Assembly: GCA_017557195.1 (NCBI GenBank)
Contig: JAFZAL010000007.1
Coordinates: 7,260-71,259, forward strand
DNA length: 64,000 nt
From: Thermoguttaceae bacterium
Lineage (GTDB): Bacteria; Planctomycetota; Planctomycetia; Pirellulales; Thermoguttaceae
Direction of reading: 5' to 3'
Below the pieces are notes generated by a model. It was not told the DNA's origin, ran no database searches, and was given only the letters and a program-made list of their open reading frames with translations. This document shows, piece after piece, positions 10,585 to 61,309 of the stretch (position 1 is the stretch's first letter; each line of letters starts with the position of its first letter). A program made the translations under genes and the position numbers.

Positions 10585-10619
10585 GCGTTAAAAATACAGA
10601 CGGTTAAACAGAGAAATAT

Positions 10620-23500: not shown

Positions 23501-23797
23501 CTTCTCCACGACGTTTTCCAGAAAATCGTCAGCCTCGGCAATTCGATTAACTCTGTTCATGCAGTTAATCGTTTGCTGCAGAATTTCGAAAATGTTACGG
23601 CATTTTTCAGGGCTTTCCTGTTCAAAAAACTTTTTTGACAGATCCAGAGCCTCGTTGAAATTGCCCTGTTGTTGAAGTTCAGAGAATTTTTCCATGGGAA
23701 ATTTTTGTGTTGAAGAGTCGTCAGCCAAGGCTGTAAAAGCCTGTCCTGCAATCATAGCCAAACAGGCGACAAACGGAGTGAATAATTTGTATAACAT
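17546..23797 (-). CDS. alpha-2-macroglobulin family protein with thioester motif
   Basis: 2083 aa. Signal peptide MLYKLFTPFVACLAMIAGQAFTALA. Thioester motif YPYGCTEQ (GCTEQ encoded at 19178-19192, minus strand). Many MG-like beta-sandwich segments. A Met/Ala/acidic low-complexity stretch (about 19870-20110) sits upstream of the thioester domain. Confidence 0.9.
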   Translation of the reverse strand: MLYKLFTPFVACLAMIAGQAFTALADDSSTQKFPMEKFSELQQQGNFNEALDLSKKFFEQESPEKCRNIFEILQQTINCMNRVNRIAEADDFLENVVEKFPEDSRTLQAVGKIYGEGFLTPYGFRVDNKFKRGQNRSGGERMFAQERDRIRSLQLLTEAEKHLDQSDYSDEEKGQFYIDFANAFMNRRGGSGAWELQTLTDISKLPDYQSPDNYYGRRYYGRPNSSAPVDEEGNPVFYAKPESFDAAQSDGERWRFLLDKAEQFEASKKVALLMRADFAYQQFGVHTIAGFNFNPANDTGEDKMSSIFKLETLSDTETIARLATGIKRFDLPEDYNFISIYKELDNWSQLGQIYLNRRQFPTAAKYWKQGADQGDEWAKRMYEQIVNPWGRIVSSRQDGMKATIGFLFRNATTVRFKINRIDVDALIQDAKAEIKMAQEPRNINHDNINIDNIAYRLVIQKQNKYVKEEIKKWDTSLTPEDNHFDKQIDMDVTFPSAGAYLIEAIVAGGNTHYAVVWINNTVLIKKNIDNKFWFFVSDSNTGKALPHSVVDFFGYAVKYSNQDRKQQIIKDSFFVTADENGQFTVPNDRLVAYSGSYNWLITIKGQDGKHQAYQGFRSFWGGGNDFNRQYDNQYNAVRVFSMTDRPVYRPAQKVQFKFWARRSQYDKDGSDFANTSAELFITNPRGEELLRKDITFDEFGGYADEIELASDAMLGGYSINVRNPGAQLYGSGYFRVEEYRKPEFQVEVKAPEKPVALGEKISASVKAKYYFGEPVSHAKAKIKVTRSEYNERWFPAMPWDWLFGKGYWWFSYEYPWYPGWNSWGCVRPYPSWHYFPHNPPEVVFEKEVDLKDDGTYDVEIDTEIAKMIFGDQNQQYDVSVEVTDASRRTINGSGKVLVSAKPFTICAWTNRGVYQVGDVLTANFKAQTLDNKPVSGTGTAKFYQVTYKSDGTPEEKEVWSKDINPDENGSATVSLNLKKAGQYRVEYTVDDGADHVCKGGQLVTVRGDGFSSKDYRFADLEIIPEKDTCNPGETLRLTINVDQQDAAVWIFPRAANGVCLPPEKVEMNGKTGFYDLKIEMRDMPNFFVEAVTVAKNQVFSETRQICVPPAKRVLVMDVIPSKENYKPGEDATAKIVLKDLQGNPFVGQAVVTIYDKSLEYISGGSNVGDISSFFWNWKRSHYPGSIDNSLRTYLQTQYPENAVGMDTLGIFGNVLKQDFGGTVMEKGEFAGRGAGKARANVMAAGAVDRKMFKAAPMAAEAPMMMNRAMDGADMMVAEEAAADDVAFDADAAPAEEEALEAETDKSGAKVQATVRTNFADSAYWTGAIVTNENGEAEISLKMPENLTTWKIKAWAMGKRTEVGQAETEVITRKNLIIRAQTPRFLVQTDKIVLSAIVHNYLESEKSVEVKVETGDNLATEDKTSQEVNIAAGGETRVDWTFTAKSEGDAVVRMFALTDEESDAMEVKFPIITHGILKQDSFSGAIRSEKETASETVEFTVPKERKPEQTRLEVRFSPTLAGAMFDAVPYLVDYPYGCTEQTLNRFLPAAICQKVVRDMGVDIADLEQKATNLNAQEIGDAAKRAAQWKKTLASPVFNPNELDKIVKFGIGRLTDMQCSDGGWGWFSGYGEHSSAHTTAVVVHGLTIAQASDVKVDANVLKRGVDWLERYESEQVELLQRGDKVKENPKLAKEFGYRYKTSADNLDALVYTVLIESGRHNAAMGEYVYRDRLNMSPYALALMGLGFDMTEQTDKRDMVVRNLTQFLRQDDENQTAWLDLGGTPFWYWYGSEIETQAWYLKLLCRTDKIDEASRLVKYLLNNRKHATYWNSTRDTALVLEAFAEYLRETDEMDPEMTVDVVLDGKTVKTVKIDKENLFSFDGTFVLEGEAITEGKHTLELKRTGSGPLYFNAYVNYFTLEDFIPASGLEIKVQRKYYKLVRDESATENAVGKRGQAVEVKIDKYVRQELKVGDVVKSGDIILVDLTLESKNDYEYLVFEDKKPAGFEPMDVRSGYNGNEIGAYVEFRDQKVSFFCRTLARGKCSVSYKLKAETPGVVSALPATGEAMYAPELKANSDEFKIETKD

Positions 23798-26342: not shown

Positions 26343-26428
26343 GGAATTGGGAGTAGGGAATAGGGAATGGTAATTCGCCTTCGGCGAATTTAAAAACTAC
26401 TCCCTACTCCCTATTTCCTACTCCCTAA
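26340..26428. repeat. 7-mer-arm hairpin element (AGGGAAT / ATTCCCT arms, alternative central hairpin)
   Basis: Left arm tagggaattgggagtagggaatagggaat. Central hairpin aattcgcc-ttc-ggcgaatt (26372-26390). Right arm actactccctactccctatttcctactcccta. Confidence 0.8.
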
Positions 26429-26434
26429 TAAATA

Positions 26435-28621
26435 ATGAAGTCCGCCGGTTTTCTGTCGACGTTGGGCGTAGGATTATGCGTTGTCGCTTTTTCAGCGTTT
26501 TTCCTTGCCCCAATGTATCAGCCGATGTTCTCAAACCGGCTGACGTTTCTTTGGAGTTGTCTGTTGGCGTCAGACATTTTGAGCTTTAATTGGCTTTTTC
26601 TTCCAGAGGAATGGCGCGCCTCGGAGACGGTCAAGGCGTTTTTCGACAGCTTCAACACGTCGTTTCTTCCGATAAACCGCTGGTCTATTCTGCTCATTGT
26701 TACAATCGAAGCTCTCTGGATTTATTCGCTCGGATCGCTGATATTTCGCTTCTTGAAAAATCCGTTGGAAGAATCTCCGCTGCTGCGATTCTGCTTGACC
26801 TGTTTGACCGGCGCAGCGGCGCTGTCCGCGCTGACGGGTTTTCTCGGCTTGATCGGTTGTCTGCAAAGCTGGCTTTTCTGGACGCTGGCGGCAGGGACGA
26901 TATTGACGCTAGTATGGAAAATTAGGGATGCGGTTTTACTCAAATCGCCTCAGATTAGTTGCGAGTTGCGAGAAGATGGAATGTGTAATTCCGTTCGATT
27001 TTTCCGGGGGCTTACGCACCCCGGCTCGCCCTACTGCCTACTGCCTACTGCCTTAATCGCTTTCTTCTGTCTCCTCGCTGTTCTCCCCGCCATGACGCCG
27101 CCATTTGATTTTGACGTTCGGGAATACCATCTGGAATCGGTCAAGGAATTCTGGCTTTCTGGGCGAATAACTGCGCTGCCCAACAACGCTTACGCCAACA
27201 TGCCCCTGGGAGCGGAAAGCCTCGTTTTGGTTTCAATGGCGCTTTCCGGCGACTGGTTTTTAGGTGCGCTGGCAGGCAAGACGCTTTTAAGTCTGTCCGT
27301 ACCGCTGACAGCGCTGCTTCTTTTCGCTCTTGGCGAGAAATACCTTTCCAAACGCGCTGGACTGATCGCAGCGCTTATTTACGTTTCCGCGCCGTTAATC
27401 ATTCGCAACGCTCAGTTTGGAATGATTGACGACGTCTTGACGATGTACGCCTTGGCAACGGCGGCAGTCCTGTTAGAAATTGTCAATCAACGTTTAACAA
27501 CAGAAACTGATATATCCCCAACTCTCGCAACTCGCAACTCGCAACTCGCAACTTTATTGGGCGCGATGGCGGGAATGGCGTCGGCGATAAAATATCCGGG
27601 CGCGCTTTTTGTAGCCTTGCCGTGCTTTATCGTAACCTTCTGGAAGAGCAGCCGTCTGCGACTCCAGCTCCCTGTTGTAACGTTTCTTCTGACCGCTTTG
27701 CTTATCGGGGGCGTTTGGTATTTGAAGAACGCGATCCTGCTGGGGAACCCGGTTTATCCGCTGTGTTCCAGCCTGTTTGGAAACGAATTTCCCGTTGGCT
27801 TTTCAGCTGAATCGTACGCTCGATGGCAAACCGTCCACGCGCCTCATGGCTGGGCTTGGTCAGCAATATACAAGCCGATTGTCCTTTTCTTCTATTCTTC
27901 CGACGTTGCCAGCCCGCTGTTTCTGCCCGTTTTGGCGTGCTGTATATTGTTTTGGAAACGACTGCCGGATTATGCGCGCTGGTCGCTGATTTACAGCAGT
28001 CTTTTTCTGGTCGGGTGGCATGTAACAACTCACAGAATTGAACGATTCCTGTTGCCCGTCGTTCCGTTTATCGCCTTGGCTGGCGGCGCGGTTTTTGACG
28101 TCATTCTTTCCAACGTTTCCGTCTGGATGGGACGAGTTCTCAAAGGCGTTTTGGCTCTCGGCGCAGCGTATTCCCTCCTGATTTTAGCGTATCCGTTTCT
28201 CGGAGCGTTCGGAACGTTCGATACAATCTCCGAGATGCGGTCGTCTCCCCTGAGACTGTGCGAGGGATTGACGCAGCTTGTTACACTGAGATCCGAAGAA
28301 CTGCTCAAAATGAAGGATTCCGGCGAACGCGTTTTGCTCATCGGCGACGCCGCGGTTTTCGACTGGCCCGTTCCCATTGACTATTCCGTCTGCTTTAATT
28401 CCGACGACTTTATAGATTCTGTTACAAGCAAACTTCAGGGAGACAATCCGCCCAAATTGATCGTTGTCAATTTAAGCGAGATAAACCGATACCAGACTAC
28501 AGAATACGGGTACAGCTCAAAAGTTAAAGCGGCCCTGGAATTGTTGGATAATCCAGACCGCTTTACTCCAATTTATCGTTCAGAATGGATGACGACGACT
28601 GTTTACGAATTGAAACAATAG
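26435..28621 (+). CDS. polytopic membrane protein, GT-C-fold glycosyltransferase-like (ArnT/PMT family-like), carrying in-frame repeat insertions
   Basis: 728 aa with many hydrophobic helices. A DE-type loop motif FDFDVREYH follows a TM helix, as in ArnT/PMT enzymes. Repeat sequence is read through in frame at 26957-27052 and 27521-27553. It may be a fusion of two ancestral ORFs. Confidence 0.6.
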   Translation: MKSAGFLSTLGVGLCVVAFSAFFLAPMYQPMFSNRLTFLWSCLLASDILSFNWLFLPEEWRASETVKAFFDSFNTSFLPINRWSILLIVTIEALWIYSLGSLIFRFLKNPLEESPLLRFCLTCLTGAAALSALTGFLGLIGCLQSWLFWTLAAGTILTLVWKIRDAVLLKSPQISCELREDGMCNSVRFFRGLTHPGSPYCLLPTALIAFFCLLAVLPAMTPPFDFDVREYHLESVKEFWLSGRITALPNNAYANMPLGAESLVLVSMALSGDWFLGALAGKTLLSLSVPLTALLLFALGEKYLSKRAGLIAALIYVSAPLIIRNAQFGMIDDVLTMYALATAAVLLEIVNQRLTTETDISPTLATRNSQLATLLGAMAGMASAIKYPGALFVALPCFIVTFWKSSRLRLQLPVVTFLLTALLIGGVWYLKNAILLGNPVYPLCSSLFGNEFPVGFSAESYARWQTVHAPHGWAWSAIYKPIVLFFYSSDVASPLFLPVLACCILFWKRLPDYARWSLIYSSLFLVGWHVTTHRIERFLLPVVPFIALAGGAVFDVILSNVSVWMGRVLKGVLALGAAYSLLILAYPFLGAFGTFDTISEMRSSPLRLCEGLTQLVTLRSEELLKMKDSGERVLLIGDAAVFDWPVPIDYSVCFNSDDFIDSVTSKLQGDNPPKLIVVNLSEINRYQTTEYGYSSKVKAALELLDNPDRFTPIYRSEWMTTTVYELKQ
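26957..27052. repeat. chimeric 7-mer-arm element embedded in frame in a CDS
   Basis: Left arm agttgcgagttgcgag. GC hairpin ccgggg-gcttacgca-ccccgg (27004-27024). Right arm cctactgcctactgcctactgcc. Translated as [31 protein letters not shown]. Confidence 0.7.
27521..27553. repeat. (GCAACTC)x4 arm embedded in frame in a CDS
   Basis: Sequence actctcgcaactcgcaactcgcaactcgcaact, translated as TLATRNSQLATL. Confidence 0.75.
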
Positions 28622-30919: not shown

Positions 30920-32050
30920 ATGAGAATCTATAAACACGCTTTTACACTGGTTGAACTGCTGGTCGTGATTACCATTATCGGTATAATCATGGGTTTGTCG
31001 CTGCCAGCGCTCAATGCCGCTCGCGAATCAGCGCGCGTATTGCAGTGCAAAAACCATTTAAAACAGCTGGGAACGGCTTGTTGGACGCATAACGCGGAAC
31101 AGCTTACGCTTCCCACCGGCGGATGGGGCTGGCAGTTTGCCGGCGACCCGGCTCGCGGGTTTAGAGAACTGCAAACCGGCGGCTGGCTGTACAATATTTT
31201 ACCATATATGGATAACCGGGCGCTGCACGACATGCCTGGACCTGGTCGTATGAAAACGCCGGTTCCGGAGTTTCACTGCCCGTCAAAGCGCAAGCCGATT
31301 CGGTATCCGTTTTCGCATTCCGGCAACGTGATGTGCTATAGACCGACGCTGTCTTCCAATAGCGTTCAGACGTTTAACGGCGAAACAGAGGTCGCTCGAA
31401 ACGATTACGCCGCCAACGGCGGCACTCGCGCCGATCCCTGTATTACAGGTACGTCATCAGGCTATTATGACGCGTTAAACAAGTACTTTAGTATGAACAA
31501 CGCGCAAGCCATTATCGGCATTCGAGCTTATTTCAAAGGCGAACATAATAACGTGAACGACAATACGGGATCGTACTGTCCCGGCGGCGCGTTTTCAATT
31601 CATACAATTTCGGAACGAGACGGCGCGTCCAACACCATCATGTTGGGCGAACGTCACGTCAATCCGGACGAATACTATACCGGAACCGCCAGCGACGACG
31701 ACCAGGGCTGGGATCAAGGGTACGACCGAGACACCGTCCGGTGGGGCGGCGCGGATAAATCCCTGTTTGGGATGGCGATGGCCGATTTGAACTATACGCC
31801 AGAAATTATGGCTAGAATCAAGGCGTATTACACGCGTCAAAATTTGAGTAATAACCATTGGATTCCCATTCAGGACAAAGCTGGATACACGTCGCCGTCC
31901 AGATGGGGATCCCCGCATGGAGACTCGATAAACTTTTGTATGGTTGACGCGTCCGTAGTTTCAGTCAGTTACGGTGTTGATCCGTTTATTTTCTATTGTC
32001 TTTGCTCGCATTGCGATGGTCAGGCAATTCCGGCTGATACATTTAAATAA
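30920..32050 (+). CDS. DUF1559 / H-X9-DG family protein with prepilin-type N-terminal methylation motif
   Basis: N-terminus [46 protein letters not shown]-terminus [16 protein letters not shown] (H-X9-DA variant). Confidence 0.9.
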
Positions 32051-32206
32051 ATTTGACACAGTATAAAAAACGAAATTCGTTTTTCGTTTTCCATTTGATA
32101 TTTAATTCCTGTACATTAACTCATCACTCGACGTCAAGTTATAAACATTGGCGAAAAGCAGTTATTAAATGCGCTATTATCATTTATAGATTTAGAGGAG
32201 GAATCC

Positions 32207-33331
32207 ATGAGAATTTATAAACGCGCCTTTACGCTTGTTGAACTTTTGGTTGTGATTACGATTATCGGCATAATCATGGGTTTGTCGTTGCCAGCTCTGA
32301 ATGCAGCGCGAGAGTCAGCTCGTATTTTACAATGCAAAAACCATCTTAACCAGTTGGGGAAAGGTTGTTTGACTCATAATGCAGAACAGCTTACGCTTCC
32401 GACCGGCGGCTGGGGATGGCATTTTGCCGGTGCGCCTTCTCGCGGATTTAGAGAATTGCAGCCCGGCGGTTGGCTGTATAACGTTTTGCCCTACATAGAC
32501 AACCGCACTCTGCACGACATGCCTGGTCCGGAACGCTGCATGACCCCGGTTCCGGAATTCCATTGTCCGTCAAAACGTAAGCCGATTCGATACCCGTTCT
32601 CTCCTGGCGACTCTACAATGATGTTGCCGGATCAGGGGCTGAAGAGTCTGAAATCTTGTGGCATCAGTGAAATCGCCCGAACTGACTATGCTGGCAACGC
32701 CGGCACCCGAGCGGATCCTGACGTTGCCGGCACCGCCAGCGGTTGGGACGATTTGCATCAATACGCCCGCGCCGGAAATAAGACTACGGTCGTTGCGTTG
32801 CGAAATTTCTGGAAAGGCAAGTGGAATACCATCACCGACACAACCGGCTGTTTCTGCGCCGGCGCCGGACAGACGACTCACGCTATTTCCGAACAGGACG
32901 GAGCGTCCAATACAATCATGATTGGCGAACGACACGTCAATCCGGACGAGTATTATACCGGCGCGGCAAGCGACGACGACCAGGGCTGGGATCAAGGGTA
33001 TGACCGCGACACAATTCGTTGGGGCGGTTCAGACGAAAAACTGCTCAGCATGGGTAACGGCGATTTGAACTACACGCCAGAACGAATCAACATTGCCAAA
33101 GCGTATTTTACTCGACAGAATTTGAGCAAGAATTACTGGATTCCCATTCAGGATAAAGCCGGGTACACGTCCCCGTCCCGATGGGGTTCTCCGCATGGAG
33201 ACTCTATCAACTTCTGCATGGCAGACGGCGCTGTCCGTTCTGTCAGCTATGGCGTTGATCCGTTCCTGTTTTACTGCCTGTGTAATTACAAGGACGCCCA
33301 GTCCATTCCGTCAAATACGTTTAAAGAATAA
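32207..33331 (+). CDS. DUF1559 / H-X9-DG family protein with prepilin-type N-terminal methylation motif (tandem paralogue)
   Basis: The N-terminal ~60 aa are nearly identical to the previous gene. C-terminus [16 protein letters not shown] is canonical H-X9-DG. A strong SD (gaggagg) lies 5-6 nt upstream of the ATG. Confidence 0.9.
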   Translation: MRIYKRAFTLVELLVVITIIGIIMGLSLPALNAARESARILQCKNHLNQLGKGCLTHNAEQLTLPTGGWGWHFAGAPSRGFRELQPGGWLYNVLPYIDNRTLHDMPGPERCMTPVPEFHCPSKRKPIRYPFSPGDSTMMLPDQGLKSLKSCGISEIARTDYAGNAGTRADPDVAGTASGWDDLHQYARAGNKTTVVALRNFWKGKWNTITDTTGCFCAGAGQTTHAISEQDGASNTIMIGERHVNPDEYYTGAASDDDQGWDQGYDRDTIRWGGSDEKLLSMGNGDLNYTPERINIAKAYFTRQNLSKNYWIPIQDKAGYTSPSRWGSPHGDSINFCMADGAVRSVSYGVDPFLFYCLCNYKDAQSIPSNTFKE

Positions 33332-43308: not shown

Positions 43309-44466
43309 ATGAACAAATACATCGTATTAAGCGCAGCTGCGCTTGTTATCAGTCTTACTGTTGGCTGTCAAAACTGCGGATATAAAACCGCTCATTGTTC
43401 GCGATATCAAACGCTTGTCGGAACGACGCGTCTGGCGTCGCCGCAGACGAATTGCCGTTATAATGCCTGCGGCGTCAGCAATGCTTGCAATACATGCAAT
43501 ACGTGTAATACGTGCGATACGCAAATGCTTGCCAATAACAGCCCGCTATATTCCAATGCGTACGCTCAGGATGCAAGCCAAAACGGATGGTATCAATCGT
43601 ACGCCGCCGAGAACGCTTCTTCAAGCGCCAGCTTGCTGGATGGAACTCAGCAGACGGCTCAAAGCGAAGCCCCGCTTCGCTGGCGCCGCGTTACAGAGGA
43701 AGAACAGCAATACGCCAACTCGGCAGTCAATCCGACGTCGGCTGGAGTTACGTCTGCTTTGAGCGCTCCTGCTTTTGGATCGCCCGCTCCTGCGTCTGCG
43801 TTAGGACCAAACACTTCCCGCAGAGCGACAAGGGGAGTCGCTTCCGCGTTGGAAACGCCTGATTATCCTGCGCCGAACGCGGCGTCTCAGTATCCGGGAC
43901 AATATCCAAGACAGTATCCCGGTCAGTATCCAGGACAGTACCCCAATTCTTCCCCCAGAGCGGCGAGAGGCGTCGCTTCAGCGTTGGATACGCCTGGATA
44001 TCCCGAACAGGCCGCCGCGCCGCAATATCCGGGTCAGTATGCTGGTCAATACCCAAACACTTCTCCCCGAGCGACCAGAGGCGTTGATTCGGCGTTAAGC
44101 GTTCCCAATCATCCGCTGCCTCCTCAGTATGCTGGTCAGTACCCTAACTCTCCCCGAGTTGCGTCTGGGGTGAATCCGTCGTACAACAATCCTTCGTACG
44201 GCGCGCCTACGTCGGGAACCGGCGAAGAACCGCTGCGTTGGCGTCACGCTACGGAGGAAGAACAGCAATACTATAATTCTCCCCACAGAGCGTCTGCTCC
44301 CATGAATGGAACGGATAATTCCGCTTACAGCGCTGACCAGTCCCTGACGGTTCCGGTTTATTCCGGGAATAACGCCGACGCTTCCCAAACGCAGGGAAAT
44401 TTAACGATGCCGGAAATTGACCCGAACGCTCTGCCATCGCTCAATCCGGAATCTGGAACGTTTTAG
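43309..44466 (+). CDS. repeat-rich secreted protein (possible lipoprotein)
   Basis: Signal-like N-terminus ending LTVGC. CNTCNTCNTC cluster. Four R[AG][AT]RGV[AD]SAL.[TV]P modules interleaved with QYPGQYP repeats. EEPLRWR..TEEEQQY occurs twice. Confidence 0.6.
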   Translation: MNKYIVLSAAALVISLTVGCQNCGYKTAHCSRYQTLVGTTRLASPQTNCRYNACGVSNACNTCNTCNTCDTQMLANNSPLYSNAYAQDASQNGWYQSYAAENASSSASLLDGTQQTAQSEAPLRWRRVTEEEQQYANSAVNPTSAGVTSALSAPAFGSPAPASALGPNTSRRATRGVASALETPDYPAPNAASQYPGQYPRQYPGQYPGQYPNSSPRAARGVASALDTPGYPEQAAAPQYPGQYAGQYPNTSPRATRGVDSALSVPNHPLPPQYAGQYPNSPRVASGVNPSYNNPSYGAPTSGTGEEPLRWRHATEEEQQYYNSPHRASAPMNGTDNSAYSADQSLTVPVYSGNNADASQTQGNLTMPEIDPNALPSLNPESGTF

Positions 44467-49393: not shown

Positions 49394-52300
49394 ATGAGCC
49401 GAAGAAATCGCAATAATCGATACAATTCTCGCAACCGAAACAAGTGGGATGAAGGTTACGACGACGAGTACTTTGACGATGACGATCAGCTGGAGTCTGA
49501 AGACGACGATTCTTCAGAGGATCAGGACGAGTACGAAGACGAAGAGTACGAAGAGTACGATTCCGAGGAGGAAGACGACGAGTCGGACGATGAACAGTAC
49601 GAAGACGAAGAGTACGACGAGGACGACGAAGAGGAGTATGACGAAGACGAGTCTGAGGACGAGGAAGAATACGACGAGGACGACGAAGAAGAGTATGATG
49701 AAGACGAGTCTGACGAGGAAGAGGTAGACGAAGAAGACGAAGAGGAAGAAGAGGAATCCGATGACGACGAAGACGACGAATTAGACAGCGAAATCGAAGC
49801 GGCGGCGGAATCGACGGCAAAGAAAACTATTGGGAATTCCGATCTGCTGAGCAAGCTTCGCGGTCAGATGCGTCCGCAGCTTAAAGAGGATTCGTCCGAG
49901 TCAAATAAAGACGTCGAAATTAACGTCTCGCCGCTGTCGCTGTTTGGTCAGCCGATTTCTCAAAACAATAAAAAGAGCAATACGTCCAGCGCTATGCCTC
50001 AGCACGCCAATGCGAGAATTGTTCAAACTGCAACAGTTGGTTCCAAACAGCCGCAGTCCGCGCCAAGCGCGTCTGTTCAGAAGTCTGGCAGCGGTCGGGT
50101 TATTACTGCTCAGTCTCAAAATGGGGCAAGCGTTACCTCTGTTCAGCCTCGAGATTTAGAAGCGGAAAAAGCGGAAGCGGATAAAAAGCAAAAAGAAAAG
50201 GAGCGTCTGGAACAGGAACAAAAGACGAAAGAAGAAAAAAGCGCTCGCATCCTCGATAAATTTAAACGAAAGAAGTCCTCTGGCGAATCCGCTGTGAGTA
50301 AAACCAAAGCGGGCGCTTCCTGGGTATGGTCAAAAATGTCGTCTGGCGCCGCCTGGATTGGGGCGGGAATTGCCGCCTGCTTTGTCTGGATGTTTTGGTC
50401 TAAACCCAAGCAGGCGTGGCAAACATGGCGAATTTTCAACGCTTCCTGGTGGTCTGGACTTGGCTCTGGCGCCTGGAACGCCGTTAAGAAACCGTTTGTC
50501 AAAAAGCCCGTCGAGACCGCTCAAACGGAAGGCGCGGAAGCTGTTCCGTCCGGGTCCGCTGATGCGTCTGTCAGCGCTGTAACATCAGAACCGGCAACCG
50601 TCAGAAAGAGGAAATCCCGAAAGAAGAATGTGGATATTTGGGACGCCGACGCGACTCCTGGCGCCGAAGCTGGAACGGACGCTTTTGCCAGCAAGGAACC
50701 GGATAGCCGCAGAAGACTCTATTTCTCTTTGAGTTCAATTGGCGCCGCGGCAATTATGTTCCTGCTGGTTCTTCCTTCAATGCTTAATGGAAGCAAAAAG
50801 AGCGATGAAAACGCAGTCGCCCTTAACGGTCAGGAAACCGTTTCTGACGTTACAAATCAGGATGTAAACAAACCGGTTTCTGAAACTGTCCCGGCGTCTG
50901 AGAACGGATTGGAGAATAACAATCAGGGAATTGTAAACAACAACGAAACGTCTCGCGTACGCGCGTTTAATTCGCCTAACGGCGACGTTCAGACAGGGTA
51001 TCCCGCTGGTAGAACGCCTTCGACCAATGGGAACAATTTCAATTCGCCTCGCGGAGACTCCCGAATGGGGTATCAAGCTGGCGGCGCTCCTTCGACCAAC
51101 GGGAACAATTTTAACTCGCCTCGCGGAGACTCGCGGACGGGATATCCAGCAGGAAACGCGCCTATGACCAACGGGAACAATTTCAATTCGCCTCGCGGAG
51201 ATTCGCGGACGGGATATCCAGCAGGAAACGCGCCTTCGAATTACAACGCGACTTCCTATGACCCGCGCTCAACTCGCCAATCGCCGACGGCGCCGCTTGA
51301 GATTGACGCTCCGGAAGTAACAACTCCTGAAATTGCGGCTCCTGAAGTTTCAGATTTGGGTTTGGACGCTCCCGAACTTCCCTCGCCGGAAGCGACGGCT
51401 CCTGAAGTAACGGACTTGGGCTTGGACGATTCCGAACCTTCCGTTCCTGAATTAACGACTCCGGAAGTTACGGATTTAGGTTTGGACGATATGGAACTGC
51501 CCGCCCCGGAAGATACCGCCTCGGAAGTTACAGCTCCGGAAGTTACGGATTTGGGTTTGGACGATTCCTTGCCGACTCCGGAACTTCCGAGCGACGATGA
51601 GGTCCCTGTTCCAGACCTGTCCGATTCGGAATTGGAAGCTCCGGCTGTTGATATAGAAGTTCCGGAAATTCCCGATGAAACGACGCAGGCAGGCGAAGAT
51701 CCGTTGAATGACGCAGCGCCTGAAGTCCCGGACTTGGACAATTCGGAAGTAACAGCTCCCGAAGAAACGGATATTGCGCCGACGCCGGATTTGACGTCGT
51801 CCGTTGAACCGTCCAGCGACGCTGATTTACCAACGCCTGAAACCGACGTTCCGGAGTTGTCTATGCCTGAATTGTCTGATCCTCAACCAGTTGATTCCAA
51901 TCTGGAAGAAACGCCGACAGTTCCAGAGCCGGATGCGTTGGAAACGGGAATTGCGTCCCAGCTGACAGAGCCTGAGCCAATTCCTGAAACGCCGTTGACT
52001 CCGGAAGAGAGTTTGCCAAACGACTCGCAGCTTGCCGCATCTCCAACGGAAACGTCTCCCGCGGATTCGTCCGTAGAGTTGGGAGCGCCTGGGCCTTTGG
52101 TTTCCTCAGCAAACGAAAACGCCGCTGACGTTCAGACGCAGACGGCTGCCAACGTCAGTCCGAGCGCTGTAAATAATGAGCCTTTGACGAACTCTGGCTA
52201 CGGGACGAGCGAATACAACAACAGTTATGCGAACAATTACAACAACGTCCCGGAATACAGTCCGACGTATGTCAACACCGGCTCGTATACGGTTCAGCCT

Positions 52301-52696
52301 AATGACAGCTTCTGGACGATTGCCAAGCGCGTATACGGCAGCGGAGAATACGCCAGAGCGCTGGCGCAGTATAACAGTTCTCTCGTCAGTCCGCAGTCGC
52401 TGACAGTGTCAGTTCAAATCAAGACGCCGCCAGTGGAAACGTTGGAACGGCAGTTCCCGGGATTGTGCCCCTCTCGCGGTTTGGCGTCTTCTGCGGCGTC
52501 GACAGCGAACGCGGCTCCGGCGGGAACTCGCGTGTATATTGTTGACCAGGAAGAAAGCGTGATGGAAATCGCCCGCCGCGAGTTGGGAAGCATCCTGTAC
52601 TGTTCTCAGGTTTACGCTCTTAACCAGGAACAGCTTTCCGGCAGCGTTGACCGCGTTAAACCCGGCGTTCGACTGCTGCTGCCCGTTCAAAAATAA
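49394..52696 (+). CDS. giant membrane-associated protein: hyper-acidic N-terminus, TM segments, repeat-rich region and two C-terminal LysM domains
   Basis: 1100 aa. About 115 residues are almost only D/E/Y/S. TM-like segments (AAWIGAGIAACFVWMFW, IGAAAIMFLLVLPSML). Four 24-aa repeats and PEVTDLGLDD-type repeats. LysM-like YTVQPNDSFWTIAKRVYGSGEYARALAQYN and VYIVDQEESVMEIARRELG...VKPGVRLLLP. Confidence 0.7.
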   Translation: MSRRNRNNRYNSRNRNKWDEGYDDEYFDDDDQLESEDDDSSEDQDEYEDEEYEEYDSEEEDDESDDEQYEDEEYDEDDEEEYDEDESEDEEEYDEDDEEEYDEDESDEEEVDEEDEEEEEESDDDEDDELDSEIEAAAESTAKKTIGNSDLLSKLRGQMRPQLKEDSSESNKDVEINVSPLSLFGQPISQNNKKSNTSSAMPQHANARIVQTATVGSKQPQSAPSASVQKSGSGRVITAQSQNGASVTSVQPRDLEAEKAEADKKQKEKERLEQEQKTKEEKSARILDKFKRKKSSGESAVSKTKAGASWVWSKMSSGAAWIGAGIAACFVWMFWSKPKQAWQTWRIFNASWWSGLGSGAWNAVKKPFVKKPVETAQTEGAEAVPSGSADASVSAVTSEPATVRKRKSRKKNVDIWDADATPGAEAGTDAFASKEPDSRRRLYFSLSSIGAAAIMFLLVLPSMLNGSKKSDENAVALNGQETVSDVTNQDVNKPVSETVPASENGLENNNQGIVNNNETSRVRAFNSPNGDVQTGYPAGRTPSTNGNNFNSPRGDSRMGYQAGGAPSTNGNNFNSPRGDSRTGYPAGNAPMTNGNNFNSPRGDSRTGYPAGNAPSNYNATSYDPRSTRQSPTAPLEIDAPEVTTPEIAAPEVSDLGLDAPELPSPEATAPEVTDLGLDDSEPSVPELTTPEVTDLGLDDMELPAPEDTASEVTAPEVTDLGLDDSLPTPELPSDDEVPVPDLSDSELEAPAVDIEVPEIPDETTQAGEDPLNDAAPEVPDLDNSEVTAPEETDIAPTPDLTSSVEPSSDADLPTPETDVPELSMPELSDPQPVDSNLEETPTVPEPDALETGIASQLTEPEPIPETPLTPEESLPNDSQLAASPTETSPADSSVELGAPGPLVSSANENAADVQTQTAANVSPSAVNNEPLTNSGYGTSEYNNSYANNYNNVPEYSPTYVNTGSYTVQPNDSFWTIAKRVYGSGEYARALAQYNSSLVSPQSLTVSVQIKTPPVETLERQFPGLCPSRGLASSAASTANAAPAGTRVYIVDQEESVMEIARRELGSILYCSQVYALNQEQLSGSVDRVKPGVRLLLPVQK
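50966..51240 (+). repeat. in-frame 72-nt tandem repeat, about 4 copies (FNSPRGDSRTGYPAGNAP.TNGNN)
   Basis: Units start at 50966, 51038, 51110 and 51182. Units 2-4 contain an RGD tripeptide; unit 1 has NGD. Confidence 0.9.
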
Positions 52697-52774
52697 CAGG
52701 AAATACGACTGAATGTTACAAGTAATTTAACCGTCGTTTTTCCTTCCCTCCCTTTTTTATCGAAAGGATAGTTT

Positions 52775-54877
52775 GTGAGTAAAAAAGTATTTAATCCATA
52801 TCGGGATTTGCTCGATATTCCATCGTTGAAAGACGAAAATCCGTCAGATTATCAGCTTCTGGGAATCGAAGATTTCGAGAGCGACTCGGGAAAGATTGCC
52901 GCCGCTCATGAAAAACGTTCGCAGCGAATAGCGGATTTGTATCAGCTTATTACGAGAATGTCTCAGCAGATAGACGAAGCCCGCGATCGCATTTCCGATT
53001 CTCAGAAAAAAGAAGAATACGACAATCTTTTAAGAAAAACCGGCCGCGCCGGCGTGGCTCATCTTGGAAAAGGCGGCTCGTTTGCCCTGCTGTTTTCTTT
53101 TGTTTTGAGTATTTTTATTGTAGTGGTTTCGACGTTCTACATCTATCCGATGGTTGTTCCAACTCCGCCGGAGAACTATGGCGATTCCGTTACAACTCTG
53201 CCGGAATATAAAGAATCCCAAACCCAAAAGGAAATCGACATCCTTAAAGTTCAGCAGGAAGACATTTCAACCATGGACGTCAATTTCAACCTCCCGATTG
53301 ACGTTGACGCCGATTCTTCAGTAGATCTCCTTGACGTTCCAGCTGCAGACATTCCTGGCGAAGAAACGTCCATTGACGACCTGTCTGTTACAGACATCCC
53401 ATTGAATGACGACGCGCAGGCGGCTGAACAGCCCGCTGAACTGGAAGTTCCCGATATTGAAGAACCCGCGCCAGAACAACCAGCGGTAGAAGAACCCGCG
53501 GCAGAGGAACCAGCGGCAGAGGAACCAGCAGAACCAGAAGTTCCGGCTTTGGAAGCTCCTGCGATAGAAGAACCTGCGGTTGAAGAGCCTGCAGTCGAGG
53601 AACCTGCCGCGCCGGAAGAACCGTCTTTACCTGAAACGCCGGCAGTTGATCAACCAACTGAGCCTGAAGAACCCGTTGATGAACAGCCTCAGACGCCGGA
53701 AGTTCCAGACGTTCCCGAGGTCGAGCAGTCTGAAGTCGAATCTCCTGCGGAGCCTGAAGAACAAACCATCGAAAGACCTTCTGAAGAATCGCCGGAGGTT
53801 CTTGTTGATCCTGAAATTCCGGACGCGCCCTCGCTTCCTGGCGTTCCCGACAGGGTCGGTTCCCAAGTGGACGTGGGGAGCGCCGAAACCGGCTCTTTCG
53901 GAGGCATAACCTCGTCCACTCGCCCGCGCGGTTTCGCGCCCGATTCTGACACGCCGACTGTTCCGAAGTTGTCAGATAGAGATAACGCCGGGATTCCAGA
54001 ACTGCCGCCGCTAGAGGAAGTTGCGGATTCTGGTCCTCCCGAAGCGCCTCAACCGCCGGTTATTCCAGAGTTGGCGTCTGTTGATGAACCGGTTGTAACG
54101 CATGATGGAGGGCGGGTATTACCCGCCGAAAAGTTGCGAGAAGCGAGTAACGAGTGGCGAGAAAACGCAAGCGTTACACAAAATCCTCTCGCAACTCGCA
54201 ACTCGCAACTCGCAACTCGCCCGTACGGCGTTGTACTGGAAGACGTTGACAAAGTTGATAAGCTGGATCAGTTTGTTCAGATGGGGCAGAAAGCTCGCAC
54301 TGACGAGGATTTTGCTCAGTTGCTCGTTTCCGCTCGGCAGGCGGAAGAAGAATTGATGAAAGAAAAACAGTTCCCAAAAGCGCAGCAAATTGCTGACGTT
54401 GTTTACGCTGCTTGCGCTCGTTTGGCTGACAAATCGTATCGCGCCGAGGCGTATCAGCACAAAGAAATCGTTTCTCGGCGGGCTGCATGGTGGGACGCCG
54501 CCCGCGCGGCTGAAGCAAAAATGCAGTCAAACGGAAGCGTTACTCCTGCTGAGGCGAATATTGTCGCCCGATGGAAAATTGAAGTAGAAAACGATTGGGA
54601 AACCGGGCTCAAATACCTGGCTTTTAGCGATAACGAACAGATTCAGCTCGCGGTGAAAAGAGATCTCGCCGCCAATCCGGAGAACGTTCGTCATTGTCTG
54701 GTTGTTGCGAATGACTGGTGGAATCTCTCTCAAGATCCGGTTCCGATGCAAAAACAGTATAGACAACGCGCCAGCATGTGGTATTCCAAAGCTCTGCCGT
54801 CAATTGCGGACAAACAGATTCGAACTCTCGTAGAAAAACGAATCTCGATAGTGGATCAGGGCTATCCAAAACACTGA
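52775..54877 (+). CDS. membrane-anchored protein with N-terminal J-like domain lacking HPD, acidic Pro/Glu/Ala linker and helical C-terminal domain; carries a complete repeat element in frame
   Basis: GTG start with aagga 7 nt upstream. N-terminus NPYRDLLDIP...SDYQLLGIEDFESDSGKIAAAHEKRSQ. TM segment FALLFSFVLSIFIVVVSTFYIY. EEPA(V/A)EEPA repeats. Same architecture as the 24126 gene. Confidence 0.68.
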   Translation: MSKKVFNPYRDLLDIPSLKDENPSDYQLLGIEDFESDSGKIAAAHEKRSQRIADLYQLITRMSQQIDEARDRISDSQKKEEYDNLLRKTGRAGVAHLGKGGSFALLFSFVLSIFIVVVSTFYIYPMVVPTPPENYGDSVTTLPEYKESQTQKEIDILKVQQEDISTMDVNFNLPIDVDADSSVDLLDVPAADIPGEETSIDDLSVTDIPLNDDAQAAEQPAELEVPDIEEPAPEQPAVEEPAAEEPAAEEPAEPEVPALEAPAIEEPAVEEPAVEEPAAPEEPSLPETPAVDQPTEPEEPVDEQPQTPEVPDVPEVEQSEVESPAEPEEQTIERPSEESPEVLVDPEIPDAPSLPGVPDRVGSQVDVGSAETGSFGGITSSTRPRGFAPDSDTPTVPKLSDRDNAGIPELPPLEEVADSGPPEAPQPPVIPELASVDEPVVTHDGGRVLPAEKLREASNEWRENASVTQNPLATRNSQLATRPYGVVLEDVDKVDKLDQFVQMGQKARTDEDFAQLLVSARQAEEELMKEKQFPKAQQIADVVYAACARLADKSYRAEAYQHKEIVSRRAAWWDAARAAEAKMQSNGSVTPAEANIVARWKIEVENDWETGLKYLAFSDNEQIQLAVKRDLAANPENVRHCLVVANDWWNLSQDPVPMQKQYRQRASMWYSKALPSIADKQIRTLVEKRISIVDQGYPKH
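54110..54220. repeat. complete composite element (GC hairpin, GAGTTGC arm, exact core, (GCAACTC)x4 arm) embedded in frame in a CDS
   Basis: GC hairpin gggcgggtattacccgcc (54110-54127) is identical to 17448-17465. Left arm agttgcgagaagcgagtaacgagtggcgag. Core ACGCAAGCG at 54165-54173. Right arm ctctcgcaactcgcaactcgcaactcgcaactcgc. Translated as GRVLPAEKLREASNEWRENASVTQNPLATRNSQLATR. Confidence 0.85.
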
Positions 54878-57552: not shown

Positions 57553-59967
57553 ATGGAAAATAGACCGAATAACCGTCCTGACGATTCCGAAAGAGACAAC
57601 GACTCTCCCAATTCGCGAATGGAGAACAACAGGAATTCTGACAGCGAAGGCCGCCCGCCGCGGCAGGGGATTCCCTTTTTTGTCGTTTTGCTCATTATTG
57701 CGATTTTGATTTTCCTTATGCCGTCCAGCTGGTCTGGAAGTCAGGAAGGGGAAATTCCCTACGGCATGTTTATCGAACAGCTTCAAAACGATAACATCGC
57801 CAAAGTCGAGATGGTCGGGGCTAAAATTACCGGCGAGTTCAAAAATCCGCCGTATAATCCGGAATATTTAGAGTATTGTACGAGTAAAGGTTTGCCTTTG
57901 CCGCCCGATGCGACTAAACCGGAACAAAAGTCAGAAGAGCCAGCCCCGGCAGAATCGACTCCGTCAGAATCAGCTCCCGCCCAGTCAGCGCCTGCTCAAC
58001 CCGAGTCCACGGGAGAACAGCCCGCGGAAGCAAATCCTTCTCAATCCGCCCCTGTTGAGCCTAAAAGCGAAGTTTCCAACGCTCAACAAGCGGAAAAAAC
58101 AGCTGCGGAATCAAAACCAGCGGAAGAATCTAAACCCGCCGCGTCTGCAAAGCCTGCTGAAATAAAGCCTGATGATTCTTCAAAGAAAGAATCGGACAAA
58201 AAGGTCAAACGTGGCTTTTTCCTTCGCACTCCGCCTGAGAAATTGGGGAAAAAGTTCTTTTGCATCGCTCCGGTTTTGACATTGCAGGACAATTCCGTCA
58301 ACCAGCTTTTGACCGAAAAGCTTGGAGAGAACTATTCTGCGTCCGAGCCGCCTGACTATTCCAACTATTTGGCGATATTGTACATTATCATAACAGTTGG
58401 CATTTTTATCTTTATTCTGTTTATGATGAGACGCTCTCGGGAACAGATGGGCGGCGGATTCATGTCGGGCTTTAGCCGATCTCCAGCCAAAAAGTTTGAA
58501 CCGTCTCAGGGTCGAACTACGTTCAAAGACGTTGCCGGTCTGGACGGGGTTAAAACCGAGCTGGAAGAAATCGTTGAGTATTTGAAAAATCCTGAGAAAT
58601 TTGCCAAACTTGGCGCTCGAATTCCCAAAGGCGTTTTGCTCAACGGCCCTCCCGGAACCGGTAAAACCCTTTTGGCGCGCGCTGTTGCCGGAGAGGCGGA
58701 CGTCCCGTTCTTCTCTATCAACGGTTCGGAGTTCATTCAGATGTTTGTCGGCGTTGGCGCCAGCCGCGTTCGCGATCTGTTTGGCTCTGCCAAAGAACAG
58801 GCTCCTGCTATTATTTTCATAGACGAAATCGACGCTGTTGGACGTCTTCGCGGAACAGGCGTCGGCGGCGGACACGACGAACGAGAGCAGACGCTTAACC
58901 AGATTCTGTCTGAAATGGACGGCTTCGCCCCGACGGAATCCGTTATCGTTATGGCGGCGACGAACCGCCCGGACGTTCTCGATCCGGCGCTGCTTCGTCC
59001 TGGACGATTTGACCGGCACATTACTGTTGACCGTCCAACGTCCAAAGGTCGTTTGGAGATGTTCAAAGTTCATACGCGGCACGTTCCTCTGGCGCCAGAC
59101 GTTGATTTTCAGCGTTTGGCGGCGGCGACAATCGGCTTGACAGGAGCCGATATTCGCAACATCGTCAACGAAGCCGCTCTTTGGGCAACGCGTCATGACA
59201 AAGAAGCCGTTGACATGTCAGACTTTGAATACGCCAAAGACAAAGTCATCATGGGCGCAAAGCGGGAAGAAGTTCTTACAGAAAAAGAACGGCGTATGAC
59301 CGCCTACCATGAAGCGGGACACGCTCTGCTGGCGTGGCTGACCCCTGGCAGCGAACGCGTCAATAAAGTTACGATTGTCCCGCGCGGGTTCGCTTTGGGC
59401 GTAACTCAGCTTGTTCCAGACGAAGATCGGCTGAGCGTATCCGAATCCCAGCTTCGCGACCGTCTGGCGTTTATTATGGGCGGGCGCGCGGCGGAAAAAG
59501 TCGTCTTTGGCGAAGTTACCGCGGGCGCGGAAAACGACATCAAACAGTCAACGTCGATCGCTCGCAAGATGGTTGTCAACTGGGGCATGAGCAAACGAAT
59601 CGGGCCTGCGGCGTTTAAGGTTTCGGAAGAACACCCGTTTTTGGGCAAGGAAATTTCCGCCGGCTCGCGAGATTTCAGCGAGTACACCGCTCAAATTATC
59701 GACGAGGAAGTTTTGCTCATTCTTCGAGAAGCGGACTCCAGAGCGGAGGAAACGCTTCAGGAGCATCGCAACAAGCTGGACGCTTTGGCGGAAGCCCTTT
59801 TGCTCAAAGAAGAATTGACGGAATCGGAAATTGAAGTCATTCTTGGCGCGCCGGCATATAAAAAAGCCGACACGGATTCAGACGAGTCAGAGTCAAACGC
59901 CGATTCGCAGGACGACGTTCAGCCGAAAGACGAATCCTCGTCAGACGATCCGGAGGATAAAGACTGA
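57553..59967 (+). CDS. ftsH: ATP-dependent zinc metalloprotease FtsH (long form with low-complexity insertions)
   Basis: Walker [19 protein letters not shown]. Walker [33 protein letters not shown]. Zinc motif HEAGHAL. 804 aa, including a ~110-aa Pro/Ala/Glu/Ser-rich insert between the two TM helices and an acidic C-terminal tail. Confidence 0.95.
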
Positions 59968-59996: not shown

Positions 59997-60040
59997 AAAA
60001 AACAACAGGGAATCGACGCAAATCGATTCCCTGTTGTTTT
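59997..60040. terminator. bidirectional rho-independent terminator between convergent ftsH and the Cys-rich gene
   Basis: Perfect 16-bp stem aacaacagggaatcga (60001-60016) / tcgattccctgttgtt (60023-60038) with loop cgcaaa. Flanked by an A-run on the left and a T-run on the right. Confidence 0.75.
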
Positions 60041-60074: not shown

Positions 60075-60698
60075 TCAGTTGCAAGCCGGGGCGCAAGCCG
60101 GGGCAGCGGGAGCGGCGCAAGCCGGAGCCGGAGCGCAAGGTCCGCAAGCCGGAGCCGGAGCGCAAGTACCGCAAGCCGGGGCGCAGGGACCGCAGGAACC
60201 GCACGGCGCGAACAGGTTAGCGAAGAATCCGTTGAACGGATAGCAAGGATCGCTGAACAGGCGCGGTTTGCAAGGATTGCAGGCGTCGCAAGCTCCGCAG
60301 GAACCGCAAGCCGGGGCGGCGGGGGCGCAAACCGGACCGCAAGCCGGAGCCGGAGCTCCGCAACCGCATCCGCAGGAACCAGCTGGCAAACCGCACTGAT
60401 TGCATTTGCAGCTGAAAATGTCGCGAATGTTGCCCAAGACGCAGCGAAGAACCGGGAAGCACGGGGTGCAAGGATCGCACGTTCCACAAGCCGGGGCAAC
60501 AGGACCGCAGGTTGTGCAAGGAGCAGCGCAGGCGGGAGCCGGGGCGCAAACCGGGGCGGCGGGGGCGGCGCAGGCTGGAGCCGGATCGCACGCGGGTCCG
60601 CAAGGATTGCAGGAACTGCATCCGAAAAGAGCAGCCTGAGCGCTGTAAGCGCTAACAAGACTAATAATCGCAACAACACTAATGACTACACGTTTCAT
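60075..60698 (-). CDS. secreted cysteine/proline/alanine-rich protein (38 Cys in 207 aa)
   Basis: Of four overlapping ORFs in this GC-rich tract, only this one has all three supports: an SD (aaaggag about 9 nt upstream of the ATG), a classic signal peptide (MKRVVISVVAIISLVSAYSAQAA) and a terminator just downstream. The body is built of CGPCAPAPAC-type repeats. Confidence 0.7.
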   Translation of the reverse strand: MKRVVISVVAIISLVSAYSAQAALFGCSSCNPCGPACDPAPACAAPAAPVCAPAPACAAPCTTCGPVAPACGTCDPCTPCFPVLRCVLGNIRDIFSCKCNQCGLPAGSCGCGCGAPAPACGPVCAPAAPACGSCGACDACNPCKPRLFSDPCYPFNGFFANLFAPCGSCGPCAPACGTCAPAPACGPCAPAPACAAPAAPACAPACN

Positions 60699-61090
60699 AC
60701 CAGAAACTCCTTTAAAATAAAAATGGGTTGAAAAATTTTTAATCGTAGTGGAAACAGTCTGTTCCCATTGGATGTTTACAACATCGACATAATCGATTGA
60801 ATAACTTTTGATTGAAAAATCCTTTTTTTCTATTGTCAGCTAAATTCCTGTTAAAATGTAACGATTATTCCGGATAATTTGCCATAAATGCCCAAAATCC
60901 CCCAGATTCCGGGCGGTTTTGGACATTTATTTAAATTTTTTTAATATTTTTCAGGAAAATCGCATGGGAAGCCCTTGTCATTTCTAAAAAAATAAGTTAT
61001 TATATAGTTTGTTAAATGTAATTGTCAACGTTCAATAAATATTGTGTTAATATTAAAAACGTTGGCGCATGTATTTGAGAGGAATTAACA

Positions 61091-61309
61091 ATGAAAAAGA
61101 CTTTCGCTTTTGTTTGCGCTTGCCTGTTTGGTTTGGCAGTTGTTGGTTGCGATCAACCGGCTGCTACGGACACAACTCCTGCCGCTCCGGCTGATGAAAC
61201 CCCCGCTGCTGAAGCTCCGGCTGATGAAGCTGCTCCTGAAGCTGCTCCGGTTGTCGAAGAAGCTCCGGCTGAAGAAGCTGCTCCGGCTGAAGAAGCCCCG
61301 GTTGAATGA
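61091..61309 (+). CDS. small acidic Pro/Ala/Glu-rich lipoprotein
   Basis: SD gagagga 8 nt upstream. Lipobox LAVVGC after a basic/hydrophobic N-terminus. The mature part is PA/PE low complexity. A clean terminator follows. Confidence 0.6.
   Translation: MKKTFAFVCACLFGLAVVGCDQPAATDTTPAAPADETPAAEAPADEAAPEAAPVVEEAPAEEAAPAEEAPVE

Follow-up and report, generated by a model that had tools for sequence, protein, structure and literature searches.

Here we describe a hyper-cysteine exported protein encoded in a 64,000-nucleotide stretch of a Thermoguttaceae genome (GenBank assembly GCA_017557195.1, contig JAFZAL010000007.1, positions 7,260 to 71,259)—hereafter the window, to which all coordinates refer unless another locus is named. 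The gene occupies 60075..60698 on the minus strand, and comparison with related genomes identifies it as a real, constrained, and conserved gene in that frame. Its 207-residue product is the type member of a small family, so far unnamed and here called the PFNGFF family, which as far as sampled occurs only in Thermoguttaceae of the ruminant gut. The protein is predicted to leave the cytoplasm by the general secretory (Sec) pathway, is apparently non-globular, and is encoded divergently from a lipoprotein gene. A role as a thiol- or disulfide-cross-linked protein of the cell envelope is the likeliest of the functions considered, if held with less than even confidence.

Gene, reading frame, and family

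The coding sequence runs from an ATG to a TGA stop (included in the coordinates) and is preceded, 8 nt ahead of the ATG, by a Shine-Dalgarno site, AAAGGAG, at 60707..60713 on the minus strand. It encodes 38 Cys, 46 Ala, 35 Pro, and 18 Gly, with His, Trp, and Glu absent and Met confined to the start; the predicted mature protein has a mass of 17.4 kDa, with 20.5% Cys, 8 Phe, and 1 Tyr. A content of about 20% Cys is unusual, indeed extreme, for a bacterial exported protein—the 29 other open reading frames (ORFs) of the window have a mean of 1.07%. A preliminary description, made from the DNA alone, had reported the length, the cysteine count, the Shine-Dalgarno site, a local island rich in guanine and cytosine (GC), and several open frames. 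All of these stand, the GC content being 64.7% in the ORF against 50.8% in the window.

Two rival frames are also open in the window, an antisense ORF of 223 residues and a +1-shifted ORF of 204, and neither they nor the 207-residue protein has an exact match in a collection of 15 billion proteins. That one of them is the true product, or that the locus is a non-coding GC-rich repeat, is nevertheless scarcely credible. In pairwise comparison with the orthologues L002 to L005 (introduced below), the frame given here has ratios of nonsynonymous to synonymous substitution rates (dN/dS) of 0.12-0.25 at dS 0.20-0.35, and substitutions gather at third codon positions (28-43, against 8-19 at first and 4-13 at second positions). 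The low dN/dS and the third-position excess are confined to this frame and no other is conserved, so that translation of another frame or strand, which the preliminary description had named as a possible refutation, is not borne out. Every length difference among orthologues is in-frame, and in L003 stops break both the +1 and the antisense frames. The rival ORFs begin with TTG or GTG and lack a Shine-Dalgarno site; the AAAGGAG site and start context of the hyper-cysteine gene are invariant in five orthologues, and AAAGGAGTTTCTGGT is invariant in six aligned loci. Distant homologues also retain the signal peptide and the family motif in the same frame. We accept this frame as the gene because of the dN/dS values, the codon-position pattern, the stops in L003, and the invariant Shine-Dalgarno site; the wrong-frame and non-coding readings are refuted by the first three.

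Orthologues were sought by scanning one genome per species. Syntenic copies are present in four Thermoguttaceae metagenome-assembled genomes (MAGs; loci L002-L005), two of them goat-gut assemblies, one bearing the label RUG (taken here to mean rumen), and one without a stated source, and a metagenome contig (L009) carries another. The DNA flanking the gene is 82-90% identical to Thermoguttaceae MAGs over several kilobases. We refer to the window gene and L002-L005 as clade A; clade B lies among more distant homologues of 45-66% identity, which were recovered by protein searches (P0001-P0003, P0010-P0011) and by genome scans (L006, L007, L010, L018-L020). These homologues share one plan: a signal peptide, then Cys/Ala/Pro blocks, with the motif present twice.

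Defined by a signal peptide, blocks of Cys/Ala/Pro, and one or more motifs of the form C-x-P-F-N-G-F-F-x-N-x-F, all of which the window protein has, the PFNGFF family counts at least 12 members in MAGs of Thermoguttaceae and in metagenomes. Three relatives came from a word-indexed search over 5.8 billion clusters; HMMER, run in full against 1.84 billion representatives, yielded five that are credible, to which a profile search added four, and a scan of Joint Genome Institute metagenomes gave only two further loci. The MAGs that carry the core family are labelled Thermoguttaceae, Planctomycetaceae, Planctomycetia, or "uncultured planctomycete", and the named sources are goat reticulum, duodenum, and colon, water-deer rectum, and the RUG-labelled isolate. 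No MAG has a second copy, and none holds clade A and clade B genes together, which in these incomplete MAGs is consistent with a single-copy gene.

A looser set of proteins (P0005, P0007-P0009, P0012, P0013) follows the same plan with a GLLRGLFHRH-type motif; one of them, P0007, comes from a forest-soil assembly. The set scores 7-13 standard deviations above composition-matched shuffles against a hidden Markov model (HMM) of the core family, and may reflect either common descent or convergent repeat patterns. Two further hits of the representative search, P0004 and P0006, are long tandem-repeat proteins that match in composition; they are not relatives.

The expectation of the preliminary description that no named family would match is upheld: the window protein has no match in Pfam, NCBIfam, or a PDB sequence search at E <= 10, and no homology to a family of different function emerged. 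The relatives, the clade B lipoprotein described below, and the window lipoprotein have no credible Pfam match at E <= 1 (an MSSP match to P0001, E 0.47, is sub-threshold and was rejected), two relatives and the clade B lipoprotein have none in NCBIfam, and Rfam returned only sub-threshold noise for the locus and its 5' region. The literature on periplasmic Cys-rich and metallothionein-like proteins and on the cystine and proline composition of envelopes yielded nothing specific to the family. The protein collections searched contain no entry for the window protein or for its orthologues (75-83% identical); either these genomes are unannotated there, or gene callers mishandle an ORF that is open in several frames. 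Gene catalogues can thus miss ORFs of this kind.

Signal peptide, aromatic motifs, and cysteine blocks

The preliminary description proposed a clean Sec signal peptide, and the N-terminus bears this out. Residues 1-22 (MKRVVISVVAIISLVSAYSAQA; 60633..60698, minus strand) read as a textbook Sec type, with a basic n-region (MKR), a hydrophobic h-region (VVISVVAIISLVSAY), and a c-region, SAQA followed by A, that offers an A-x-A site; signal peptidase I is predicted to cut between AQA and A. There is no twin-arginine motif. Residues 2-25 form the only confident helix of the AlphaFold model, with a predicted local distance difference test (pLDDT) score of 84-90. Within clade A the signal peptide is near-invariant (four copies are identical and L003 has S13C), and all relatives begin, as judged by eye, with a signal-peptide-like N-terminus. 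One caveat is the LFGC that follows at residues 24-27, with an alternative site between LFG and C, which, as judged by eye, fits the PROSITE lipobox rule. Cleavage by signal peptidase I rather than signal peptidase II is tentatively favoured because a lipobox is mostly missing from clade B, where P0011 has a similar LAQGC. The sequence predicts that the Cys-rich protein is Sec-exported.

Beyond the signal peptide, two islands separate three cysteine-rich blocks. This division, made in the preliminary description, holds; the islands were also called non-repetitive, which does not hold, for both are diverged copies of a single motif, and no other part of the family is as strongly conserved. Island 2 (residues 144-165, KPRLFSDPCYPFNGFFANLFAP; 60204..60269, minus strand) carries the family signature and is identical across the clade A orthologues. 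Its motif is the longest invariant run in an alignment of the window protein with P0001-P0003, in which P154, F155, N156, G157, F158, F159, N161, F163, A164, and P165 are invariant. The general form is C-x-P-F-N-G-F-F-x-(N/E)-x-F, with PFNGFFxNLF as the canonical version, and clade B and L005 have two copies.

Island 1 (residues 81-96, FPVLRCVLGNIRDIFS; 60411..60458, minus strand) is the diverged copy, retaining a ΦΦxxΦF motif. Its sequence FPVLRCVLGNIRDIF sits where the first motif copy lies in relatives, a position that reads CKPRLFSDPCHPFNGFFANLF in L005 and CTPFNGFFLELF in clade B. In the L005 gene (6001..6621 of that locus) the place of island 1 is taken by a second, nearly identical island 2, so that CKPRLFSDPC[HY]PFNGFFANLF occurs twice, apparently by intragenic conversion or duplication. 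The common spacing ΦΦxxΦF (FFANLF, FFLELF, VLGNIRDIF) is that of a two-turn amphipathic helix, and AlphaFold places short helices of low confidence at residues 84-88 and 156-163. Taken together, the motifs look like specific interaction sites.

The blocks are of a different character. Block 1 (residues 23-80; 60459..60632) combines chains of CxxC with spacers of the form C(A/P)nC; block 2 (residues 97-143; 60270..60410), delimited from the sequence and the orthologue alignment, is rich in Gly as well as Cys, Ala, and Pro; block 3 (residues 166-207; 60078..60203) contains imperfect 27-nt and 21-nt tandem repeats, and all three lie on the minus strand. A 66-nt repeat at 83% identity is common to blocks 1 and 3. 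We compared the Cys pattern of the mature sequence with 20000 shuffles: CxxC occurs 15 times against 4.85 expected, a count that no shuffle reached, and CC doublets are absent against 7.6 expected (P = 5e-5). The protein has three CxC, and several of its CxxC are CGPC or CxPC. The spacing of the cysteines in CxxC and C(A/P)nC patterns, noted in the preliminary description, is thus non-random.

Among the five orthologues, 32/33 ungapped Cys columns and 31/32 Pro columns are invariant. Block length and Cys number (34-38) nevertheless drift, through in-frame indels of 1-7 codons at dS 0.20-0.35; block 1 has one in-frame CAP insertion and one deletion, and block 2 has indels of 2-6 codons. Structure prediction, one of the checks named in the preliminary description, gave no fold: from a four-sequence alignment AlphaFold returned a whole-model pLDDT of 40 and a predicted template modelling score of 0.22, so the protein is apparently unfolded or non-globular. 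The blocks look like material in which composition and Cys spacing matter, because Cys and Pro are invariant while lengths drift, no fold is predicted, CxxC is enriched, and CC is missing.

Codon use sets the gene apart as well. Relative to background, GCT is used for 59% vs 24% of Ala, GGT for 50% vs 13% of Gly, TGC for 97% vs 63% of Cys, and TTC for 100% vs 45% of Phe. Both the Cys-rich gene and its partner lipoprotein gene prefer these four codons and avoid GCG and GGC; the other 29 ORFs and an Ala/Pro-rich insert in FtsH show no bias of the GCT/GGT type. A marked codon bias of translational selection is a sign of high expression, and we propose that the protein is highly expressed because the bias is typical of abundant proteins.

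A divergent lipoprotein gene

Across a 392-bp spacer from the hyper-cysteine gene, at 61091..61309 on the plus strand, lies a divergent gene for a 72-residue lipoprotein with the lipobox VVGC and an acidic Ala/Pro/Glu repeat tail, conserved in L002-L005. Almost all of this gene consists of 15-nt units in tandem, each coding for an acidic Ala/Pro/Glu stretch of the (A/E)(A/E)APA type; the number of units varies among orthologues, and the gene's preference for GCT is extreme (19/22 Ala). In clade B the same position is taken by a Cys-rich lipoprotein: L001, L006, L007, and L010 have, divergently upstream, a gene for a protein of 91-95 residues that starts MKK...AGC and carries CRWTPFKKDQTVCYTP...CDIPVVDDC. 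Such genes lie at L001 4625..4900 (minus strand), L016 2501..2776, L017 2501..2788, L018 2498..2779, and L019 2501..2782. The consensus is CRW(T/S)PFKKDQTVCYTP...D(I/V)PVVD(D/E)C with a C-terminal VEPIPG(N/T/A), and the gene divergently adjoins one with two PFNGFF motifs in all loci.

A genome search with the clade B lipoprotein found a divergently adjacent PFNGFF gene at 6/6 loci, and L001, reached through the Cys-rich protein, brings the clade B loci with this adjacency to seven. The partner is Cys-rich in clade B and Ala/Pro/Glu-rich, not Cys-rich, in clade A; the likeness between the two is confined to their signal peptides, with no detectable homology beyond. The spacers measure 390-392 bp with 28-30% GC in clade A, and 399-433 bp (five measured) or 501 bp (L001) with 33-36% GC in clade B, and they share no 9-mers between the clades. 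On the sequence evidence the divergent lipoprotein pairing is conserved across both clades. No other neighbour is shared in the contexts of P0001, P0005, P0007, and P0009—no radical S-adenosylmethionine (SAM), Dsb, transporter, or regulator gene.

The spacer in the window (60699..61090) is AT-rich (30% GC) and serves as a divergent control region with several conserved blocks. Three of these, AATCGTTACA near 60867, TGTCGATG...AACATC near 60790-60770, and ATTTTTCAACCCATTTTT at 60736-60719, do not vary among the clade A loci. Sites for regulators, or a long and structured 5' untranslated region, may lie within the spacer. A perfect TTGACA-18-TATAAT on the minus strand (61028..60999) is kept only in the window and L002, its closest relative, and this sigma-70 promoter was given no weight.

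The Cys-rich gene is monocistronic and ends at a bidirectional intrinsic terminator hairpin (59999..60040, both strands) of 18-19 pairs with T-runs on both strands. The preliminary description correctly placed a terminator downstream, but its figure of 16 bp was too short, and the hairpin is shared with the convergent ftsH (57553..59967, plus strand). That FtsH has a low-complexity insert of about 100 residues, rich in Ala, Pro, Glu, Ser, and Lys, after an FtsH_ext match (residues 42-101), and acidic low-complexity tails at both termini.

Candidate functions and their setting

The preliminary description suggested a disulfide-cross-linked envelope or matrix protein, with a periplasmic metallothionein-like metal binder as the alternative. 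Our tentative reading of the protein as a thiol- or disulfide-cross-linked envelope component would work as follows. Sec-exported, intrinsically unfolded, and abundant, the mature protein of about 17 kDa would stay in the envelope, where the two conserved aromatic motifs would attach it to a partner or to the face of a membrane. Its thiols, spaced on stiff Ala-Pro rods, could then form inter-chain or inter-protein disulfides or thiolate bridges, and these cross-links would build a covalent proteinaceous layer; the divergently encoded small lipoprotein would act jointly and supply membrane anchorage. We favour an envelope role because of the lipoprotein pairing, the codon bias, the tolerance of block length, and a Cys/Ala/Pro/Asp module in locus L014. 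The last belongs to a 419-residue protein of a Planctomycetaceae MAG (L014 3890..5149, plus strand) that has a signal peptide and carries CDAGCDAAPDCGCDATPDCGCD as a module at its N-terminus; the module is of the CDAAPDCGC type and is followed by a body rich in Trp, Tyr, Gly, and Asp that resembles a putative outer-membrane beta-barrel. This protein suggests that Cys/Ala/Pro/Asp modules are reusable envelope parts.

On this reading two known systems would be functional parallels, neither of them homologous. Membership of the YTV, chlamydial Omc, metallothionein, keratin-associated, and ferredoxin families was assessed with HMMs, and the protein falls in none. As a precedent, wall preparations of planctomycetes contain Cys-rich proteins, and YTV is the sole Cys-rich planctomycete wall family documented so far (PMC8567305, PMC12673574). 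YTV proteins, known from the walls of Rhodopirellula, Gemmata, and Tuwongella and proposed to be structural (PMC8567305, PMC12673574), are like the PFNGFF protein exported, rich in Cys and Pro, and from the same bacterial class, Planctomycetia. The window protein, however, has no Pfam YTV match (E <= 10) and no YTV string; it is much smaller, with a far higher Cys fraction (20%), CxxC/Ala-Pro blocks, and the PFNGFF motif, and its family is, as far as sampled, limited to gut Thermoguttaceae.

The second parallel is the chlamydial pair OmcA, a small Cys-rich lipoprotein, and OmcB. Both systems belong to the Planctomycetes-Verrucomicrobia-Chlamydiae (PVC) superphylum, both set a lipoprotein gene beside a gene for a Cys-rich exported protein, and clade B likewise has both partners Cys-rich; the disulfide-based rigidity of the chlamydial envelope is the proposed point of likeness for the PFNGFF protein. 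In contrast to the Omc pair, the PFNGFF and lipoprotein genes are divergent and not a co-oriented operon, and neither the window protein (Pfam, E <= 10), nor its relatives, nor the clade B lipoprotein matches Chlam_OMP3 or Chlam_OMP6. OmcB is folded and of about 60 kDa, whereas the window protein is disordered and of about 17 kDa, and unlike OmcA the clade A lipoprotein has no Cys in its mature region. A likeness to mammalian high-sulfur keratin-associated proteins (KAP10 type, with CAPAPC-like strings) is one of low-complexity Cys/Pro/Ala composition only. Those proteins form a disulfide-cross-linked matrix, but they are eukaryotic, cytoplasmic, and CC-rich; with no Keratin_B2 match in Pfam (E <= 10), the likeness is convergence at most.

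Several points weigh against an envelope role. The main weakness is the habitat: in an anoxic, strongly reducing gut, extracytoplasmic disulfides may fail to form or to persist. No Dsb-like gene lies within the window, which says little on the whole genome, and the clade A lipoprotein, with no Cys beyond its lipidation site, could not be linked by disulfides in the manner of OmcA. Mature Cys counts are even in clade A and odd in most clade B members; complete intramolecular pairing is thus not a family rule, and the parity itself is uninformative. The suggestion of high expression rests on general knowledge of codon bias and is uncalibrated against ribosomal or EF-Tu genes. Finally, the family is rare, at about ten clusters in the collections of 5.8 billion clusters and 1.84 billion representatives, and rarity counts against a core wall role because a protein with that role should occur more broadly across Planctomycetia. 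Orphan low-complexity proteins are common in metagenomes.

A more specific version of the envelope reading, which we consider improbable in full, is a hitherto unrecognised two-gene module from which gut Thermoguttaceae would build part of their envelope: the lipoprotein and a disordered hyper-Cys protein docked by PFNGFF would form a redox-switchable envelope meshwork of thiol/disulfide or thiolate-metal links, parallel to but independent of OmcA/OmcB.

Among the alternatives, an exported thiolate binder resembling metallothioneins comes closest, though we judge it unlikely. Periplasmic CxxC chains would chelate Zn, Cu(I), Cd, Ni, Co, or Fe, sequestering toxic metals or capturing scarce ones in a sulfidic milieu; the reducing rumen and gut habitat of these anaerobes could keep extracytoplasmic thiols reduced. 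Like metallothioneins (SmtA/BmtA included), the window protein is dense in CxC and CxxC and has no stable fold predicted without ligand. Its mature Cys fraction, mainly in CxxC (15) with CxC (3), lies within the 15-30% of the class, clade B members are CGC-rich in the manner of metallothioneins, and a ferritin gene lies downstream at one clade B locus. However, there is no metallothionein match in Pfam (E <= 10), and the protein is about three times longer than typical metallothioneins, at 17.4 kDa against <10 kDa. It also has a signal peptide, aromatic islands (nine aromatic residues in all), and 19% Pro in stiff Ala-Pro spacers, features atypical of metallothioneins, and strictly avoids CC. 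The drift of Cys number by indels argues against a defined cluster stoichiometry, and no gene for metal transport or its regulation is conserved nearby, the ferritin being confined to its one locus. Cys drift, aromatic motifs, Pro content, and the missing CC all speak against a metallothionein of the classical kind, though not decisively, and metal binding leaves both the aromatic motif and the lipoprotein pairing unexplained.

We give still less credence to a periplasmic thiol redox buffer or sacrificial antioxidant, in which CxxC dithiols would absorb O2, H2O2, quinones, or tannin-derived oxidants and later be re-reduced. The 15 CxxC, several of them CxPC or CGPC (the active-site sequence of thioredoxin), the anaerobic hosts, and the inferred high expression fit such a role. 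Yet AlphaFold predicts no thioredoxin fold, nor any other, and no DsbD/CcdA-like reductase is a conserved neighbour; the idea, entirely inferential, also accounts for neither the aromatic motif nor the lipoprotein partner. An iron-sulfur (ferredoxin-like) protein, or a precursor of a ribosomally synthesized and post-translationally modified peptide with enzyme-modified Cys, is very improbable and was rejected: CxxCxxCxxxC does occur twice (residues 27-37, then D-P, and 166-176), but the second copy is lost in L003-L005 and both are missing in clade B, there is no Fer4 match (E <= 10), a Sec-type rather than twin-arginine signal implies unfolded, cofactor-free export, and no radical-SAM, cyclase, or peptidase-transporter gene for maturation is a conserved neighbour.

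The rest of the window holds further surface genes. A second Cys-dense lipoprotein of the same genome is predicted at 43309..44466 (plus strand): 385 residues with the lipobox LTVGC, 10 Cys in the first 70 or so residues including CNTCNTCNTC, QYPGQYPGQYP-type repeats, two PLRWR..TEEEQQY segments, and no Pfam match. Surface genes typical of planctomycetes and the PVC superphylum encode a 1111-residue protein with Chlam_PMP repeats (3311..6646, minus strand), a 980-residue protein with F5/8 type C and HZS_alpha middle domains (14467..17409, plus strand), and a 2083-residue bacterial alpha-2-macroglobulin (17546..23797, minus strand). A tandem DUF1559 pair with N-terminal methylation motifs (N_methyl) lies at 30920..33331 (plus strand). 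Together with the 82-90% DNA identity to Thermoguttaceae MAGs, the DUF1559, N_methyl, Chlam_PMP, and HZS_alpha domains mark the host as a planctomycete, as the preliminary description had supposed. Six large ORFs of 700-1100 residues, arranged as three adjacent pairs (7381..13004, 24126..28621, 49394..54877), have no Pfam match at E <= 1e-5.

What gives the unusual envelopes of planctomycetes their stiffness and organisation is a matter of debate, and YTV, the only named Cys-rich wall family, is not tied to a mechanism. The locus described here provides a compact, testable candidate—a 17-kDa protein and a lipoprotein—in the anaerobic gut branch of the phylum, for which there are now isolates. 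Thermoguttaceae have also been isolated from anaerobic digesters (PMC11929135). If its thiols bind metals, the protein would be a rare Sec-exported analogue of metallothioneins. If they cross-link, the principle of the disulfide-bonded chlamydial envelope would reach a free-living PVC lineage in a reducing habitat; and were the two-gene module true, Cys-cross-linked protein envelopes would have arisen repeatedly in the PVC superphylum, strict anaerobes included.

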